Source: Octopus vulgaris
Lineage: Eukaryota
Direction: 5' to 3'
DNA length: 64,000 nucleotides
NCBI GenBank assembly: GCA_951406725.2
Contig: OX597843.1
Location: forward strand, 19,654,001-19,718,000
Part shown: positions 28,672-62,189 of the stretch, one piece after another
How the letters are laid out: every line of letters begins with the position of its first letter
Numbering within the stretch: the stretch's first letter is position 1
Translations under genes and position numbers: made by a program
Notes under the pieces: model-generated
Databases searched by the model: none
Told to the model about the DNA's origin: nothing
What the model saw: the letters and a program-made list of their open reading frames with translations, nothing else

Positions 28672-29045
28672 AGATAAGACAGTAAGGTGTGATTTGAGGG
28701 AGATTTGGCTGCTATTTCTACCATGTCTAGCTGCCATGTAGGGGTCTCCTAATAGGCTCATACATACATATATACATAGATAAGACAGTAAGGTGTGATT
28801 TGGGGGAAATTTGGCTGCTATTTCTACCAGGTCTAGCTGCCATGTAGGGGTCTCCCTCATAGGCTCATACATACATATATACATAGATAAGACAGTAAGG
28901 TGTGATTTGGGGGAAATTTGGCTGCTATTTCTACCAGGTCTAGCTACCATGTAGAGGTCCCCCTCATTGGCTCATATATATATACATACATAAGACAGTA
29001 AGGTGTGATTTGAGGGAGATTTGGCTGCTGTTTCTACCAGGTCTG
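28672..29045. repeat. Minisatellite, ~107 bp x ~3.5
   Basis: ataagacagtaaggtgtgatttg recurs at ~28673, 28780, 28887, 28990. Confidence 0.9.
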
Positions 29046-29828: not shown

Positions 29829-30222
29829 TCTTTATATATAAAAGTGAGGTTGTGTGTCTGTCTCCTACGATTTAGATTCCTAACTACTCCCACATTTTGC
29901 GGTGCAGTTTAACCAAAACCGGGTATCTTATAGTCGTGATTCATATCGAGACCGTCTGGGTATTAGCGCGCGTCTACGATGAGTCTACGATTTAAAAAAA
30001 AATTTACCATCAATTTTTCCCATTTTTAATCCATTTTTGACATATATAAGGGAAGTAACTCTCTAAAATTTATTATTAAATCTCAGAACGTAAAAAGCTA
30101 CAGTAACACCCTCCCCCTTTGTGGTTAGCCATATTGAGATGGCTATAATACTTTACATCTCTAAAAATGCTTATATAATTATTTCCCTTACAAACCCGAG
30201 CAACGCCGGGAGATACTGCTAG
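29829..30222 (+). mobile_element. Non-autonomous Helitron-like element
   Basis: 5' TCTTTATATATAAAAG; 3' CCCGAGCAACGCCGGGAGATACTGCTAG; 3' end shared with 1971-2343. Confidence 0.82.
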
Positions 30223-31831: not shown

Positions 31832-32080
31832 GTAGCTTTTTAGCCCCAGGAGATCATCGTCTCCAGCTGGCTTTAGACACAATCCAGTGCCCTTTATGAT
31901 ATTCGCAAAGGGAGGTCATCCCCTGTCGAAAACCTAAGTGATACGCATAGACTGCAGTTTCGAGAATATTGTCTCTTGTCAACACACGCTAATCACGGTC
32001 CATGAGTATCACTTAGGTTTTCGAGAGGGGATGACCTAAAGCGAGCTGGAGACGATGATCTCCTGGGGCTAATAAGCTAC
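31832..32080. mobile_element. ~250-bp element with ~37-bp terminal inverted repeats and an internal hammerhead-like motif
   Basis: gtagctttttagccccaggagatcatcgtctccagct ... agctggagacgatgatctcctggggctaataagctac; absent from the paralogous site at 13380. Confidence 0.8.
31943..31989 (-). ncRNA. Minimal hammerhead-like motif, U3-A8 core
   Basis: GCGUGUG-UUGACAA-GAGA caauau UCUC-GAAAC ugca GUC|UAUGCGU; homologous to 44789-44832. Confidence 0.68.
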
Positions 32081-32954
32081 AGTAACACCCCCACCCCTAG
32101 TGGTTGGCCATATTAAGATGGCTAGTATACTTTACGTTGTCGAGCCCTTACTGATTACATCTCGCTCAGAGATTTATTATTGATTATAAACATATCTGCG
32201 TCACAAGCCAATGTTTCCTGATTGTGTAAGCCTATGATTAGAGGACATCCGGTCGTCATCTTCCCATCCATTTAGTTATATAGCATTGTCTCCGGTCTCT
32301 AGGTGAGCAGCGTTTTCCCTGAATTAAACTTCTTAAGCACACATGCAACCAAAAACCCATAGGACACTTGTGTGTAGACCACTAAATACATGCTTCCAAC
32401 TCCTCAGATCTGAATGCTTCGTCACCTTCCCGTCCCCGCAGGACTTTCGAATGAAAAAATAAATTGTACGGTTAAAAAGTATAGAATTTAAATTAAAAAG
32501 ATAATATTAAACAAGAAGATTCAAGCAAAATAGTCGGCAATGCCTGTACACAATGTCTGTACACAAATTTACAAATTGCTTTGCAGCGTTTCTGTCGGCT
32601 ATTCGCGTTCTGAGTTCCTTTCCCACCGAAGTCCACTTTGCCTTTCATTTCTCAGAGGTGCTGAAGTCCAATTAGTCGACTGACCACTTCCCCCACAATA
32701 ACACAACCCACTGGTATTCTACCTAAGCCAGAGAGAAATTTACAGGCGGCAATCTAGGATTTCAGGACAAAGAATTGCTACGCGGGGTCATATGTAATCA
32801 TGTATGATTATATAAAAATGCATCAGGATATATATACATACACAAACAGTAACAAATATATGTGCGTGTATGTGTGTGTGTGTGTGTGTGTGTAAGTGTA
32901 CCTGTGTGTGTTTGTGTATGTGAATGTGTGCAATTATGTACGTTTGTATATATA

Positions 32955-35661: not shown

Positions 35662-37680
35662 ATGTTTGACATTTGCTTTATTTTTGTACAAGTTGGCTTC
35701 AAGTCTCACCCAGAGACCTCAAGAGACAACAGGTTGGAAGTTCACGTTGTTGTTATGCCTAGCGTGCCATATATTTGGTTGTTTTTTGTGTTGTACTGGT
35801 GGATGTCTAAAAAAAAAGAAAAAATGTGTGTTTTAAACCTTGAGATTACATAGAAAGTATTTTGCGTAGGATATGAGCAGTTCCCATGAGCACTATCTTT
35901 TGAATTTCTGCCACTTTTGGGTTTCCTGGTATCTGAGTTAGGTAGCTATCAGCCCCTTTTGCTATCATTCCCAGGGCACCTATGACAACAGGTATTGTTT
36001 TAGTCTTCAGCTTCCACATTTTGCTGATTTCTATTTCAAGATCTTTATATTTGCTCAGTTTTTGGTAGGTCTTGACAGATACGTTTATATCGATTGGGAC
36101 AGTCATATCAATGAGGAGGCATGTTCTTTGTTTGAAGTATTTCAATATGATGTCTGGCCTATTCGCATCTATCTTTCTGTCAGTTTGAATGGTGAAGTTC
36201 CCGAGGAGTGAGATATGGTCATTTTCAAGCACTGGGGGTGGTTTGTGTTCCCACCAGTTTTTTTCATGGGGCAAATCCAGGTTTTTGCAGATTACCCAGT
36301 GAATATATTGTGCAGTTCTATCGTGCCTGTTCAGATACTCTGTAGGCGCTAGAAGACTGCACTTGGAGACCACATGATCAATGGTTTCATTTTGTTGTCG
36401 GCATACACGACACGTTGGACTGCGGCTGATCTTTAATATGTTGGCCTGGTAGTTCCTTGTTGGTAGGCATTGATCTTGTGCTGCTATGATAAACCCCTCT
36501 GTTTCAGATTTTAAGCCAGAGGCCTTTAGCCATTGATGGGTCAGGGCTTTGTCAACATCTGCATTATTCGCTCTCTTTGGGTATTTGCCATAGAGAGTTT
36601 TTTCTTGCCATTTATTATTCAGAATATCTAAGGCCGCAGATTCAACTTGGGTTTTCATGCGCTTAGCTTTTTCTGTGCTTGTTTCTTGTATGTCTATCTC
36701 TAATTCCGAAATTTGTTGTATTCGGAATTCACTTAGATATTCCTTTGCCTGTTTTGTTACTGAGTATGATGCTTTCTTGTTTTCGTGTTTTGAGACAGTT
36801 TTAACATCCAGTCCTCAGAGTTTTTCAGGTAGGTGTCTAGGCCAATTGTAGCAATCTTCATTGTTATCGCCAGTTTTAAAAGTCCACGGCCTCCCTCTTT
36901 TCTTGGCAGATAAAGTCGTTCTGTATCTGCCTTAGGGTTGTGCATTCTATGCATTGTCAACAGTTTTCGTATTGTTCTGTCAAGATTACATATTTCAGTA
37001 ATTGACCAGTTAATGATATTGAAACTGTAAGTCACGACTCGTATCGCTAATGCATTGATCGCTTCGATCCTGTTTCTCGCATTCAGCTCTGTCTTGAGTA
37101 TTGCTCTTACTCTGCGATAGCATTCTCTCCTGATCCTTTCCTTCATCTCTGAATGCCTTATTCCGTCTCCTTCGATTACCCCTAGATACTTGTAGTTCTC
37201 CGCTGGGTCTAGTTCTTTTATGACATTCTGCTGGTCAAGGTTAACCTTAGATGCTTCTGTCATTTTTCCTTTGATAAAGGTAGCTTTTGCACATTTATCG
37301 AGGCCAAATTGCATTCTGATGTCATCACTGAATTGTTTGACAATCGCTAGTAAGCCCTTGAGTTGTTGGTCGTTTTTGCAAAGAGCTTTAAATCATCCAT
37401 ATAAATGAGATGATTTATAGTTTTATCAAACATTTTTTACCCGTACTGCGCATCATTGAGCAGCTTTGAGAGAGGTATTAAAGATAAACAAAAGAGGAGT
37501 GGTGACAGTGAGTCACCCTGGAAAATGCCACATGAAATTTTTACATCACCAGCATTTAGAGATTCATTGTCACTGTTCAAAGTTAGTGTGGTTCTCCATG
37601 ATCTCATACTTACAGACAAAAACTTTCGCAGAGCAGGTGCTATCTTATACATTTCTAGGCATTTCTTAATCCAGCTATGT
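35662..37680 (-). mobile_element. 5'-truncated R4/Dong-like LINE (RT plus restriction-like endonuclease), frameshifted
   Basis: GIFQGDSLSPLLF, QFGLDKCA, YKYLG, RLYLPRKEGGRGL, CRVC..ETIDHVVSKC, RHD, RPDI..D; flanked on both sides by (TAT/TAA)n, the known Dong target. Confidence 0.93.
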
Positions 37681-37681
37681 G

Positions 37682-37973
<292 letters not shown>

Positions 37974-38139
37974 AGGCGGCGAGGTGGCAGAATCGATAGC
38001 ACGCCGGGCAAAATTCTTGGTGGTATTTCGCTCGTCTTTACGTTCTGAGTTCAAATTCCCCCGAGGTCAACTTCGCTTTCCATCATTTCGAGGTCTATAA
38101 ATTTAGTACCAGTTATGTCCTGAGGTCCATGTAATTGAC

Positions 38140-40295
38140 TATCTAACACACCAGATGTATATCACTGCATATCTCTCCCGCCTTCGCTCCAGGGAGAAGA
38201 GTTTTAGTACTTTCAGTCTTTCACAGTAGCTGATATGTTGCAGTGAGACGATCTTCTTTGTGTAGCTTTGTTGGATTGCTTCGAGTTCTGCTGTTAACTT
38301 TATATTGTGTGGTGACCATAGTTGGGAGCAGTAGTCCAAGTGACTGAGGACAAATGTCTTCCAAAGGACCATCAGTGACTCCTTCACTCTTGTTCTGTAA
38401 GTTCGGAGAATCCATCCGGTTAACCGTCTGCATTTTATTACCAAATTAGTAATATGAACTTTTTAAGATGCATCATTGCTCATGTCAATGCCCAGGTCAC
38501 GCACTGAGTTTGACTCAGGAATTACAATTCTTCCCGGGCCAGTGTATCCGGTCTGCATGTCGTTCACCTTTGTGCGCAGGGCTTGGAACTCCCCTGCATT
38601 AAACTGCATGTTGTTGTCCTCAGCCCACCTGTATATTGTATCCAACTCCCGTTGCAGATGTGCAATATCTCCAGGGTTTTGCTTTGTGTGAGAGACTTTT
38701 GTGTCATCTGCATAGCTAGCAAGAGTGGCCATCTTAGCAACTAGCGGCATGTCTGAAAGGGCCACTATGAACAGCATTGGCCCCAAGACAGTGCCCTGTG
38801 GAACACCGCTTGTTAATTGTGTTTTCTTGGAGGTGGTTCTGCCTACCTTCTATCTTTTAGGAAGTTGTACAGCCACTCTCCAAGTTTTACGCCTATGCCC
38901 AAATCACGCAGTTTGTGACAGAACATACCATGGTCGACTTTATCAAAGGCTTTTGCAAAGTCGAGATATATCACATCCACACTTGAGACATTTAGTAGCT
39001 GTTTTAACACCCAGTCATAGTGTTGCAGGAGTTGTGTTAGACAGCTTCTACCTGGTCGAAATCCATGCTGGTTGTCAGTCGGCAAGTCATTTTCTTCTAG
39101 GAACATGATTAGTTTCTTGCTGACTATTCGTTCCATGACTTTGCTGATGTGTGAGGTCAGAGAGATAGGCCTATAATTTTTAGCATTTACTCTGCTTCCT
39201 CCCTTATGGATAGGGCATATTATCCCTTCTTTCAATTTGACTGGGAGCTTACCACTTGCAAGAAAGATCTGAAAAAGAAGCTGTAGCGGTTTTGCAAGGG
39301 CTCGTTTGCACGATTTGAGAAGGATCGCTGGAAATCCATCAGGTCCAACAGCTAAGTTTGTGTCAATCTCATCTATGGCGAGTGTGATATCATCATCTTC
39401 AATGTTGATGTACTCAATTTTTGCCTCTTTGGCTACAGGTAAAGTGGCAAAAATTCTTCTGGTTTGTTTACTTGCCTGTGTCCTAGAGGTGTCGGGAACG
39501 CACTTTGGAACTGTTCGTTCAGTATTTCACTTACCCACGTGGGATTTCCTGTGAGGAAGCCATCTTTTTAGAAGAGAGGTCCTATCCTCTGACGCACTGT
39601 GGCTGTATCTTTGGCAAACTTAAAGAAAGCTTTAGGGTTTGACTTGATATTTTCTATTACCCAAGCTTCTTTATCTGCTCTCTCCTTTTCATGGGACTGA
39701 TGCAGACATTTCTCAATTTCCATTAACATTCTCTCGAGGCGAGACTTTTCACCACTTTTGGTGTGCTTGCTCAGTCGGTTCGCAATCCTTGTCCGTCGTC
39801 TCATAAGAATCCTCCTTTCTCTAGGGATCCTGTTTTTGTTTGTGCTGGACCTGCACACTGGGACATATTTGTCATATATGGGTTGTATAATGGACATGAA
39901 ACGTTTGTATTTCATGGTGTGGAAGGACATTTAGGCTAATCCTGTTTGAGGATCTCTTTCTCAATCAACTTCCAATTTGCTTTATGAAAGTTTAGTTTGG
40001 AGAGATTGTGGATGCTTCGTATAGGCTGTGCGTCTGCGGGAGCTTTTGGTCCATGCATAGACAGCTCTGTTATGTTGTGATCCGAGACCAATGTCGGCAT
40101 CACTTAAACATTATGGATAATGTCTATATTGTTTGTGAGGCAGAGATCCAGTATATTATTTGCCCTGGTTGGTTGAAGCACAATTTGCTCCATTAAAGAG
40201 GCATTTATGAGATGGAGCAGGGACTCCGACTGTGCCTGCTGATGGTGTGTCATCCCTGGGAGCTTCTGCCTTCCAGGCCATTCCACATTGGGGAA
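38140..40295 (-). mobile_element. CR1/L2-group LINE ORF2 fragment (end of endonuclease region plus RT), disrupted
   Basis: PTRANNILDL, NYRPISLTSHISKVMER, YLDFAKAFDKVDHG, GPMLF, YADDTK, LDYCSQLWSP, SLERRR. Confidence 0.92.
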
Positions 40296-42171: not shown

Positions 42172-43363
42172 TGTTTCGACGTCAGCATGGGTGCTAGCGA
42201 CTCGGCTGAAATAAGTGACCTTGTGGGCCTTTTCATCCTCCATAGGCTGAAGACCTTATTCACAGGCCTCTCCGGTGGTCTTTACCGCGATGATGGCCTT
42301 TTTGCCCTCCACAAAATAAACCCCAGGACCACGGATGGGTTCCGGAAAAATCTTTACACTTTTTTTAAAAACTTAGGACTTAGGATTACCTTAGAATCCA
42401 ACTTAACCAAAGCTAACTTCCTTGACGTTACCCTCGACTTAAAAACATCACTTTATTACCCGTACCACAAACCAAATGAATCCCTTAGATATATAGACAT
42501 TAATTCCAACCACCCCAAAAATATATTAGACAACCTAGTAAAAAGTGTCTCAATTAGAATATCTAGCCTGTCCGCTACAAACATATTACAACGAGGCCCT
42601 GGCCCGCAGTGGCTTTAAAGATAAGATCACCTATACTAGCATAGCCCCACGCCAACCCAGGAAAAATAGGCGAAGACACATTAGCTGGTACAACCCCCCT
42701 TTCAACCGTGAGGTCGCTACACCTGTAGCTAAAATCTTCTTCACTCTCCTACAGAAACACTTCCCCACCCAACATAAGTACTATACAATCCTAAATAAGA
42801 ACACCATTAGACTCTCCTACTCTACCACGCCCAATCTAGCCAGGAACCTAGCCAACAATAACGTGAAAAAACTTAATAAATCTACTTTTTCCGAGGCCCA
42901 TCCAACATCCGATAGCAATTGCAACTGCCCTGATAAAACCACTTGCCCCTTCAACAACAACTACCTACAGAAGGACCTCGTCTACACATGCGAGGTACGA
43001 TCAGGCCCCGATGATAAAAGAAAATCGTACATCGGAATGACGTCAAACAGCTTTAAGACTCGTTGGTACGCCCACACACATTCGTTCCGGCGACCTGACA
43101 AATCCAACCAAACTACCCTCGCCGCCCACATCTGGTACCTTAAAAGGAACTCCATCCCCTTCAAGATCAAGTGGAGACTACTACAGAGGGCGCGTTCGTA
43201 CACAGGAGGCCATACCTGCTGTGACCTTTGCATTTCTGAGAGCCTGGAGATCTTGTTCGCCAAAGGCCCTCTCCTCAACAAGATCTCGGAACACTCCCCA
43301 AATTGCATGCATAAAATTTATGCAAACTATAAAAACTACAGACCCCCCCGGCAACCCGATTGA
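42172..43363 (+). pseudogene. Penelope RT C-terminus plus GIY-YIG endonuclease (one frameshift near 42580)
   Basis: FDVSMGASDSAEISDLVG, GLYRDDGL, NFLDVTLDL, SNHP, WYNPPF, CNC..CP, VYTC...YIGMT..FKTR, CDLCISE, LLNK. Confidence 0.92.
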
Positions 43364-44644: not shown

Positions 44645-44715
<71 letters not shown>

Positions 44716-44736
44716 CTTATTCGTCTTCTTATTATG

Positions 44737-44775
<39 letters not shown>

Positions 44776-44788
44776 ACCTGGTGGTTAC

Positions 44789-44832
44789 CGCCCGTTGATA
44801 AGAGACAATAATCTCGAAACCGGTCCGGTGCG
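44789..44832 (+). ncRNA. Minimal hammerhead-like motif, U3-A8 core
   Basis: CGCCCG-UUGAUAA-GAGA caauaa UCUC-GAAAC cg GUC|CGGuGCG. Confidence 0.7.
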
Positions 44833-44906
44833 TATCACTCAGGCTTACGAGAAAGGGATGGCCTCCCTTTGCAAATACCAGAAGCGACACCTACTGGTCT
44901 GGCTAC

Positions 44907-44948
44907 GCTGCATTGAAAAGGGGCAATACCCCGAAACGCGTATGTAGC
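44907..44948 (+). ncRNA. Minimal hammerhead-like motif, U3-A8 core
   Basis: GCUGCA-UUGAAAA-GGGG caaua CCCC-GAAAC gc GUA|UGUAGC. Confidence 0.72.
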
Positions 44949-45559
44949 TGCCGGTCAAGTAGTGCTGAGCGACTGACCTCCCTTGTTCGAAGGTTATATG
45001 GATACAGTTTGTTTATCAAATAGTTAACTTAAGGCGATGGCCTCATGGAGCTAATAAGCGGACAGCTTTATTCTTATTTTTATAAGAATGCCATATTAGT
45101 ATGGCGATAACTATTATTTTCCGGGAACGCTGCCGTTGTTCTCTTTTAGAGAGACTTAGTAATTTTAATAGTTCTAATATTTTTATTGGCTGCGTGATAA
45201 GAAGCTTGTTTTCCAACCACGCGCCTTCAAGTTCAGTCTCACTGCCTGACACCTCGGGCCTACCAGAGCCTTGTGAGAGGTTTTCGTTGACGAAAAATTA
45301 AAGACGCCTGTCGTACAATTTTTAATTGACCCCAATTGCTCTACATCGTCAAATCATTCATGATTGTGTTGTCATTTTCTTTGTATCGCCTCTATAGGTA
45401 ATAACAAATTATAGAGCACAGTTTAAGCTATCGTTCAGACGTGTTTTTTTTTTGAGCTCGTGAGTAATTGTTTTGTTTGGTTTGCTTTTGTTAAAAAATA
45501 CTTGTTAATTGCCAAAGCTCAGTCATACAAAACCATAAGTTACTGTTTATATGATTTAT

Positions 45560-47201: not shown

Positions 47202-47775
47202 AGGTGGCGAGCTGGCAGAGACGTTAGCACGCCGGGCGAAATGCTTAGCGGTATTTCGTCTGCCGTTACGTTCTGAGTTCAAATTCCGCCGAGATCGACA
47301 TTGCCTTTCATCCTTTCGAGGGTCGATTAAATAAGTACCAGTTACGCACTGAGCTCGTTGTAATTGACTTAATCCGTTTGTCTGTCCTTGTTTGTCCTCT
47401 GTGTTTAACCCCTTGTGGATAGTAAAGAAATAGGTATTTCTTCTGCCGTTACGTTCTGAGTTCAAATTCCGCCATGGTCACTTTGCCTTTCATCCTTTGG
47501 GGGTCGATCAAATACGTATCAGTTACGCACTGGGGTCGATGTAATCGACTTAATCCGTTTGTCTGTCCTTGTTTGTCCTCTCTGTGTTTAACCCCTTGTG
47601 GGTAGTAAAGAAATAGGTATTTCGTCTGCCGCTATGTTCTGAGTTCAAATTCCGCCGAGGTCAACTTCGCCTTTCCTCATTTCGTGCTTGAGTACCATTT
47701 GAGTACTGGGGTCGATCTAATCCCCTCTCCCCCTCCCCACAATTTCAGGCCTTGTGCCTATAAGTAGAAAGGATT
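47202..47775 (+). mobile_element. Second-family SINE with three tandem internal units
   Basis: ggtatttcgtctgccgttacgttctgagttcaaattccgcc recurs at ~47250, 47433, 47616. Confidence 0.85.
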
Positions 47776-60334: not shown

Positions 60335-60586
60335 TTAGATACTAATTTAATAGTATATTTATTCCACACCAAGTGGCCTAGTGCTACGAGAAACCTGGAT
60401 TATTATAATATTTTATAACATATTATAATATTTTCACAAAATAAATATAAGAGAGTGTTCACTATATTGATCACTCTAGCACCAGTTAATCCAAGAGGTT
60501 TCAACCACGAAAAATACATGTTTCCCATGAAAGCCGGTACGACTGTTAGCTCACACGGACAGGGCAAATAAAAAATAACAAAAATA

Positions 60587-60680
60587 CAGATTATTTTGGG
60601 ACAATTGTTTCGCTATTAATGAATTAAATGTAATATTACTTACAGTAATCCATTTGTAGCTCTTCAGCCAAGACTATCTG
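60587..60680 (-). ncRNA. Type I hammerhead ribozyme, array unit 1
   Basis: CAGAU..UUGG-CUGAAGA-GCUA...UAGC-GAAAC aauu GUC|CCAA..AUCUG. Confidence 0.85.
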
Positions 60681-61120
60681 GATGAAATCCACTCAATCAC
60701 ACGCCAGATTTTACCATAACGATAATTACGCGTGCGGTTCAATTGATTACATCGGACGTTATAATTCAAATGCCCCAACCAACAGCGCGCCAAACTCTCA
60801 CGGAAAACAAATACAGCATTTAGAAATAAATGCAGCATAATTATAATTAATTAATAAGGGTGAGAGAATTAGATACTAATTTAATAGTATATTTATTCCA
60901 CACCAAGTGGCCTAGTGCTACGAGAAACCTGGATTATTATAATATTTTATAACATATTATAATATTTTCACAAAATAAATATAAGAGAGTGTTCACTATA
61001 TTGATCACTCTAGCACCAGTTAATCCAAGAGGTTTCAACCACGAAAAATACATGTTTCCCATGAAAGCCGGTACGACTGTTAGCTCACACGGACAGGGCA
61101 AATAAAAAATAACAAAAATA

Positions 61121-61214
61121 CAGATTATTTTGGGACAATTGTTTCGCTATTAATGAATTAAATGTAATATTACTTACAGTAATCCATTTGTAGCTCTTCA
61201 GCCAAGACTATCTG
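61121..61214 (-). ncRNA. Type I hammerhead ribozyme, array unit 2
   Basis: Identical to unit 1 by eye. Confidence 0.85.
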
Positions 61215-61655
61215 GATGAAATCCACTCAATCACACGCCAGATTTTACCATAACGATAATTACGCGTGCGGTTCAATTGATTACATCGGACGTTATAATT
61301 CAAATGCCCCAACCAACAGCGCGCCAAACTCTCACGGAAAACAAATACAGCATTTAGAAATAAATGCAGCATAATTATAATTAATTAATAAGGGTGAGAG
61401 AATTAGATACTAATTTAATAGTATATTTATTCCACACCAAGTGGCCTAGTGCTACGAGAAACCTGGATTATTATAATATTTTATAACATATTATAATATT
61501 TTCACAAAATAAATATAAGAGAGTGTTCACTATATTGATCACTCTAGCACCAGTTAATCCAAAGAGGTTTCAACCACGAAAAATACATGTTTCCCATGAA
61601 AGCCGGTACGACTGTTAGCTCACACGGACAGGGCAAATAAAAAATAACAAAAATA

Positions 61656-61749
61656 CAGATTATTTTGGGACAATTGTTTCGCTATTAATGAATTAAATGT
61701 AATATTACTTACAGTAATCCATTTGTAGCTCTTCAGCCAAGACTATCTG
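61656..61749 (-). ncRNA. Type I hammerhead ribozyme, array unit 3
   Basis: Identical to unit 1 by eye. Confidence 0.85.
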
Positions 61750-62189
61750 GATGAAATCCACTCAATCACACGCCAGATTTTACCATAACGATAATTACGC
61801 GTGCGGTTCAATTGATTACATCGGACGTTATAATTCAAATGCCCCAACCAACAGCGCGCCAAACTCTCACGGAAAACAAATACAGCATTTAGAAATAAAT
61901 GCAGCATAATTATAATTAATTAATAAGGGTGAGAGAATTAGATACTAATTTAATAGTATATTTATTCCACACCAAGTGGCCTAGTGCTACGAGAAACCTG
62001 GATTATTATAATATTTTATAACATATTATAATATTTTCACAAAATAAATATAAGAGAGTGTTCACTATATTGATCACTCTAGCACCAGTTAATCCAAGAG
62101 GTTTCAACCACGAAAAATACATGTTTCCCATGAAAGCCGGTACGACTGTTAGCTCACACGGACAGGGCAAATAAAAAATAACAAAAATA

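Follow-up and report, generated by a model that had tools for sequence, protein, structure and literature searches.

Two U3-A8 hammerhead motifs in Octopus vulgaris belong to two related, likely retrozyme families, probably fused once by a Penelope-type template switch

Within the 64,000-nt stretch of the Octopus vulgaris genome analysed here (the window), two hammerhead motifs, HH1 and HH2, lie close together in pieces of two different repeat families, A and B (Table 1). The pieces are flanked upstream by a microsatellite, likely the insertion target, and downstream by an unrelated older repeat which we take to be a tRNA-derived SINE. The window is rich in microsatellites and in AT, and the assembly measures 2.8 Gb.

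Table 1. Features at the fused locus and at an independent family A copy in the window
Feature	Position	Strand	Basis
(TA)n then (TG)n microsatellite, 5' flank	44647..44774		TRF and sequence
Family A piece, subfamily A1, 107 nt	44772..44878	+	Copies across the genome 97-100% identical
HH1, type I hammerhead	44781..44838	+	Descriptor, fold z-score, Rfam HH9, cross-family covariation
A/B junction	44878..44879	+	Unique in the genome, out of register
Family B piece, 303 nt	44879..45181	+	Ends at the distal fixed family 3' end, +239 from the cut
HH2, type I hammerhead	44899..44955	+	Descriptor, fold z-score, listed B contexts, public runs, covariation
Older dispersed repeat, unrelated, 3' flank	45187..45315	+	67-81% matches in other loci
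Subfamily A2 independent copy, inverted arrangement, with a third U3-A8 hammerhead	31832..32186	-	Descriptor, genome copies

The whole window was scanned with a type I hammerhead descriptor, which recovered both motifs where a sequence-only reading had placed them, with the cores, stem II, GAAAC, palindromic loop and GUC or GUA sites it had described. The core of HH1 was TTGATAA (44795-44801), followed by a 4-bp stem II with a CAATAA loop (44802-44815) and GAAA (44816-44819); that of HH2 was TTGAAAA (44913-44919), followed by a 4-bp stem II with a CAATA loop (44920-44932) and GAAA (44933-44936). Both cores had a U3-A8 pair. The helix III regions were palindromic, ACCGGT in HH1 and ACGCGT in HH2, with 1-2 bp of helix III and a palindromic loop in each motif. 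Cleavage is predicted after 44825 at the GUC site of HH1 and after 44942 at the GUA site of HH2, 117 nt apart. Both motifs had the type I layout of three helices with an open-ended helix I, supported by covariation, and the core N3-UGA-N7-N8-A9...GAAA...UH with a Watson-Crick 3-8 pair.

A stricter Y3/R8 descriptor matched the window three times, at HH1, at HH2 and near 31982 on the minus strand, compared with a mean of 0.04 matches in 200 block-wise dinucleotide shuffles (192 with none and 8 with one). The third motif, with the core TTGACAA at 31982-31976, belongs to the A2 copy, and a further family A fragment was seen at 30091-30158. HH1 had a weak local fold z-score (-0.74), HH2 a moderate one (-2.65). 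HH1 matched Rfam Hammerhead_HH9 (RF02275) with E=9.3e-7 and 33.4 bits, below the gathering score of 52. HH2 was absent from the 10 Rfam matches in the window at E<=10, and at gathering scores there was no match anywhere in the window. HH1 aligned over the whole HH9 model, stem I and the CAA loop included, though with a U3-A8 core and a minimal helix III. HH9 is presumably a conserved single locus, whereas the host of HH1 is a young mobile repeat. The GUA site was private to the window copy of HH2: all 58 other distinct B contexts listed had GUC, and position 44942 read C in four of four public runs (assembled contigs). These results confirmed HH1 and HH2 as real hammerhead motifs, predicted to be self-cleaving, with a core variant that is uncommon but known.

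HH1 and HH2 are not one unit and belong to two multi-copy mobile repeat families. Family A has a non-coding, circularly permuted monomer of about 355 nt, with lengths of 352-357 nt in subfamily A1, found mostly as one or two units or as wrapped copies. The non-coding monomer of family B, about 362 nt long, is arranged in tandem, with at least five adjacent units in some arrays. Each monomer carried one U3-A8 hammerhead, and both monomer length and cut-to-cut spacing were 352-358 nt in A and 360-364 nt in B. Folded as circles, real monomers gave z-scores of -7.6 for B, -4.9 for family C, -5.4 for family F and -3.4 for subfamily A5; the B circle had a GC content of 0.41 and was 63% paired.

The A piece in the window lacked the usual 3' end of its family. 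All 29 other sampled A1 loci continued past the position of 44878 into the family's own sequence, and their upstream sequence was again the family's own or an inverted copy. B copies elsewhere were likewise preceded by their own monomer end or by an inversion. The junction joins a point 84 nt after the A core to a point 34 nt before the B core, and a 30-nt pattern across it, with one mismatch allowed, had a single genomic match. Copies found with the whole two-hammerhead stretch as a query matched only from query position 103-105 onward, and a query with its first half returned a different set. Among the fetched loci there was no other A-B or comparable inter-family junction; the one other flagged case (L147) was read as one family matching several references. 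In four public runs, the loose ends at 44878-44881 ran on into each family's own monomer.

A junction that occurs once could be an assembly artefact between two repeats, and none of the contigs listed from the four runs, which comprised 146 further pieces, bridged it with 31 nt on each side. We nevertheless consider an artefact very unlikely. The two repeats are joined out of register, without the extended shared sequence on which misjoins usually depend, and the runs are contigs, probably from other individuals or species, in which rare variants are dropped.

The sequence-only reading had described the stems of the two hammerheads as unrelated, but this does not hold for their hosts. A1 and B aligned outside the ribozyme with z-scores of 13.2 and 9.4, compared with values near 0 for an unrelated control family, and the stems are thus diverged relatives. 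The main tree contained 58 copies over 238 alignment columns, with positions 3 and 8 masked; left out were 6 TTGAAAA-AGAT rows, 31 of 36 degenerate motifs, one false A3-U8 match, truncated copies and copies beyond five per family and state. C3-G8 families fell between A and B, C3-G8 family C was the sister of the U3-A8 subfamily A5, and the U3·G8 families A3 and A4 lay within the A group. Five changes were needed at position 3 and seven at position 8, counts that include single-copy mutations and that inter-family recombination could inflate. AU tests, run after the tree had been seen, rejected a single clade of all U3 rows (p=9e-42) and an A1+B clade excluding the C3-G8 families (p=0.0004), and with them the idea that A and B inherited U3-A8 from one origin. 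Since A and B do not form one clade apart from the C3-G8 families, U3-A8 was gained or lost more than once, and the 3-8 pair appears, on this tree, to have switched repeatedly among related families. Family C (L065-L074) had tandem units of 353-359 nt and an inverted pair; with A5, its closest relative, it forms a near-matched natural pair for kinetic comparison.

The covariation analysis that the sequence-only reading had proposed showed that the helices covary across families. In 16 hand-picked family representatives 91% of cells were paired, compared with 23-47% in partner-slid controls, and 11 of 13 pairs had two-sided changes; the relatedness of the representatives inflates the shuffle control. 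Covariation was found in helices I and II, and the minimal helix III had no two-sided change. The core letters UGA, A9 and GAAAC were invariant across the 16, in part because the motifs were found with the core pattern.

For the state of the core pair across the genome, family patterns were used in which stem II was fixed, positions 3, 7 and 8 were free and A was excluded at position 3. Family A gave 161 exact stem II motif matches and family B 1,203, with 0 in the reversed-pattern control of each. Among the matches listed, U3-A8 was present in 96 of 100 in A, where C3-G8 did not occur, and in 100 of 100 in B. A looser genome-wide pattern, without pairing constraints, gave 3,265 matches (control 65): 2,481 U3-A8 (41), 377 C3-G8 (3), 226 U3·G8 (15) and 181 C3·A8 (6). 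These are counts of copies and not of events; B supplies about half of the U3-A8 matches, and 9 of the first 100 U3-A8 rows belong to a probable false family, TTGAAAA-AGAT. As the sequence-only reading had expected, CUGANGA-based searches miss cores of the HH1 and HH2 type, since none reached the Rfam gathering score and U3-A8 makes up 2,481 of the 3,265 matches. In the octopus genome, most members of this hammerhead pattern class escape such searches and the Rfam thresholds. The TTGAAAA-AGAT family was set aside as likely false; it lies inside an open frame of about 626 codons and is not homologous to the others. The element with this frame is multi-copy (L092, L100, L101, L104, L105, L117) and gave only a weak zinc-knuckle match, and the hammerhead-like pattern inside it is probably due to chance.

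Three identical motifs accounted for 45 of 100 listed U3·G8 rows, whereas the most repeated C3·A8 motif accounted for 3 of 100, and no young C3·A8 family was present among the rows listed. This difference is consistent with selection that keeps 3-8 paired while tolerating a wobble. An older family of 56 copies comprised 33 U3-A8, 12 C3·A8, 10 U3·G8 and 1 C3-G8; its C3·A8 copies were mildly clustered in a tree of 30 copies with 2 of 27 branches well supported. With 12 of 56 copies in that state, it is not established that the mismatched C3·A8 never amplifies. The sequence-only reading had argued for selection on catalysis rather than decay. U3-A8 is indeed the family state in A and B and not decay of the window copy, but positions 3 and 8 do not always change together, as the amplified U3·G8 and the C3·A8 copies of the older family show. 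The A3 and A4 families (L122-L151) were young and fixed for the U3·G8 wobble, A3 also having a GUU site. In both, N7 is C and G8 hence lies inside a CpG, which is likely a mutational route to A8.

U3-A8 had also been taken for a rarer compensatory variant. It is a natural compensatory core, but not a rare one in the literature: natural U3-A8 cores were reported in 2011 (PMC3088659), and about 1,300 U3-A8 minimal hammerheads from Schistosoma Penelope-like elements in 2014 (PMC4209133; available text of both). The octopus motifs share the compensatory core with those of Schistosoma but are full canonical type I hammerheads with a CAAUA(A) loop. They differ from the U3-A8 motifs described in these texts in that U3-A8 is the majority state of the pattern class and coexists with close C3-G8 and U3·G8 families. 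No account of amplified U3·G8 families was found in the literature searched, in which the key hammerhead papers were incompletely covered. In a deep-mutational study of a type III hammerhead, as given in its accessible part, only a G:C swap rescued the 3-8 pair (PMC9901934), and activity of the octopus U3-A8 cores is therefore not guaranteed. The close relatives with C3-G8, U3·G8 and U3-A8 cores are material for kinetic comparison.

The non-coding tandem monomers of A and B, each with a single type I hammerhead, fall within the retrozyme range of about 150-450 nt. They resemble metazoan non-LTR retrozymes, as described in the parts available of PMC7229834 and 10.64898/2026.07.22.740005, in having non-coding monomers of a size, about 350-390 nt, also seen in mussel, in the single type I hammerhead of each unit, and in occurring both in tandem and as solo copies. 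Further likenesses are a GC content below 50% with strongly self-paired predicted circles (B, A5, C and F were folded) and occurrence alongside Penelope-like elements. The axolotl HHR_Amex1 similarly has a 1-bp helix III with a palindromic tetraloop, and was reported to cleave poorly in monomeric but well in dimeric form (PMC7229834, available text). In contrast to the retrozymes described in these texts, the main octopus families are U3-A8 or U3·G8, inverted copies and two (TA)n 3' ends are evident, the window locus fuses two families, and cleavage and circles are predicted. An "active" retrozyme is recognised by two consecutive units of the same family (10.64898/2026.07.22.740005, available part); A and B have such units elsewhere, and the window locus, which holds a partial A and a partial B, does not. 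A and B thus appear to be further members of the animal non-LTR retrozymes with a core variant that was already known. No octopus or cephalopod retrozyme was found in the literature searched, in which one paper on a Penelope-like element and one on a non-autonomous LTR element surfaced.

The ends of the copies point to how the families move. Measured from the cut site, 48 of 51 terminal B 3' ends formed two clusters, with 21 ends at +174-179 and 27 at +235-239, two fixed positions 63 nt apart; 18 B loci had one end of each class, and TA repeats adjoined 48 of the 51 ends. The 29 A1 ends were also bimodal (21 at +194-206 and 8 at +225-252 from stem II), but only 10 of them ended in TA repeats, which counts against Penelope-type integration. 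Inverted junctions were present in 10 of 22 B loci, where the inverted copies stood head-to-head, and in 11 of 40 A loci. Two fixed 3' ends, inverted 5' copies and an AT-rich or (TA)n target were thus all found, as expected of repeats mobilised by Penelope. Penelope-like elements have tandem and inverted copies with a tail at one end only (10.1101/2021.04.23.441226), and the tail has been tied to two internal reverse-transcription start sites, with extension on both strands (PMC11167929; both in the portions available). The tail, inversion and (TA)n ends of A and B match these features and so support Penelope-type integration.

With EN+ Penelope-like elements and their pLTR hammerheads, as presented in the accessible text of the same two sources, A and B share copies in partial tandem, inverted 5' copies, a 3' tail that is optional and confined to one end, AT-rich or (TA)n targets and a short palindromic helix III. 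They differ from these elements in encoding no protein and in wrapping as circular permutations of about 360 nt, and the B tail is about 63 nt instead of 30-40 bp. Their monomers wrap onto themselves and, unlike in an autonomous pLTR, the hammerhead repeats do not flank an RT-EN frame: none of 34 open frames near hammerhead matches, selected from 103 listed, had RVT_1 or GIY-YIG.

We suggest that A and B are likely non-LTR retrozymes copied by a Penelope-like retrotransposon. Tandem copies would be transcribed, neighbouring identical hammerheads would pair through their palindromic helix III with one cut per monomer, and the cut monomer would be circularised. An autonomous Penelope-like element would then supply the RT/GIY-YIG protein, which would nick AT-rich DNA and begin synthesis at the fixed internal sites. 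The use of Penelope-like proteins by retrozymes has been proposed but is unproven in the literature consulted; the tail and inversion signature of the young octopus copies supports it.

Alternatively, A and B could be detached Penelope terminal repeats or satellites that are copied uncut, with a loosely constrained hammerhead in which U3-A8 hitchhiked with few masters. Hammerhead mutants left Penelope insertion in vitro unimpaired (PMC11167929, available text), so that activity would be dispensable for it; the older family with its C3·A8 and U3·G8 copies, mildly clustered on a poorly resolved tree, and the dominance of the U3-A8 counts by the single burst of B are also in line with this view. 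We think it rather unlikely, given the invariant core letters and covarying helices of the 16 representatives (with invariance partly due to pattern selection) and the lack, among the rows listed, of a young C3·A8 family comparable to the amplified U3·G8 motifs.

A possible partner of the proposed retrozymes was found in a GIY-YIG genome search in which the best 150 of 6,136 candidates were scored. A young Penelope-like family with RT and GIY-YIG was recovered, many copies of which keep an intact 781-codon frame, and an open frame of 771-781 codons was present in nine of nine fetched loci (L231-L239, e.g. G000:C16:20835500-20841000). Pfam identified RVT_1 and GIY-YIG in the one copy scanned. 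In all nine copies a minimal U3-A8 hammerhead, its stem II extended, followed the frame at a distance of about 0.8-1.1 kb, and the 3' ends of all nine ran into TA repeats, short in two of them. A CxxxxCxxC linker accompanies RT and GIY-YIG, and this linker suggests a place in the Neptune/Nematis group, following the available text of 10.1101/2021.04.23.441226. The terminal region of this element had no BLAST match to retrozyme monomers in 30 loci (one abundant family compared), and the element is a candidate partner only. Its intact protein allows an in vitro test.

Other traces of reverse transcriptases were seen in the window. A 273-codon open frame at 42542-43360 had no significant Pfam match; its WYNPP motif recalls, we presume, Naiad-type Penelope-like reverse transcriptases. 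LINE-like remnants were present on the minus strand at 35849-39526, with RVT_1 at 38846-39526 and zf-RVT at 35849-36814.

Tentatively, and with less than even confidence, the octopus families may be read as a retrozyme superfamily that a live U3-A8 Penelope-like element copies in trans and in which the 3-8 pair walked repeatedly between C-G, U·G and U-A, the wobble being active enough to found families of its own. If so, nature would have left a series of compensatory intermediates of a ribozyme active site together with a directly testable retrozyme-partner pair, and the fused locus would capture the enzyme as it moved from one retrozyme RNA to another.

As for the fused locus itself, we consider it likely that HH1 and HH2 come from two related, likely retrozyme families that were fused once, probably by a template switch of a Penelope-type reverse transcriptase at insertion. 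Copying would have started at the distal B start site at 45181 and run for 303 nt; the enzyme would then have switched to an A RNA as template, copied 107 nt of it and halted in the (TA)n(TG)n tract. On this account the spacing of 117 nt is a by-product. The B piece ends at the distal start site (+239), and the A piece lacks a regular 3' terminus; a single insertion with a template switch is the simplest account. Against it, the 3' end of the B piece has no (TA)n, which most copies do have. Since no other inter-family chimera was present among the fetched loci, such switching must be rare if real. A nested insertion with the rest of A downstream was rejected, as no A sequence follows B in the window.

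Separate insertions of A and B in the same TA-rich tract, followed by deletion of the 3' part of A and the 5' part of B, are a less probable origin, and within the retrozyme reading we favour the template switch over deletion. Both families prefer AT or TA targets, a B-like copy lies close to a Penelope-like copy in L219, and 2 of 35 A continuations resemble the first 8 nt of B at 6 of 8 positions. The A piece was identical to another copy (L032) over its 107 nt, whereas the B piece was 97.1% identical to other B copies, which were 98.9-99.3% identical among themselves. This divergence of 2.9% slightly favours two insertions of different age. The age gap is weak, since about 2.7 changes are expected in 107 nt and zero has a chance of about 0.07. 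Furthermore, the TA tract, the 5'-cut A and the B piece with its fixed 3' end need only a single event under template switching.

The sequence-only reading had seen in the pair a tandem device releasing an RNA of about 117 nt. In favour of a selected double-hammerhead cassette with a functional 117-nt product, both cores are intact, and both helices I can form together in the MFE fold of 44775-44965. We regard such a cassette as highly improbable: the arrangement is single-copy, with a unique junction where the natural spacing is 352-363 nt, HH2 has the private change C17A and the B piece several others, and the predicted fold of the 117-nt piece is unremarkable beside those of shuffles (z=-0.26). 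A minimal helix III with a palindromic loop has been reported to need a second identical copy (available text of PMC7229834, PMC4209133 and PMC6765202). The palindromes of HH1 and HH2 self-pair only, with a helix III heterodimer at -1.1 kcal/mol compared with -8.3 and -7.5 for the homodimers, and because they do not match, double cutting is predicted to be inefficient. HH1 and HH2 could still cut as monomers, or in trans with transcripts of their families. Their pairing is likely accidental rather than a means of releasing a 117-nt RNA.

Tandem arrays elsewhere in the window were also detected by TRF, with units of 183 nt at 47250-47684 and of 107 nt at 28672-29044. At 60403-62037 identical short repeats lie about 534 nt apart, a spacing that suggests a longer tandem array.
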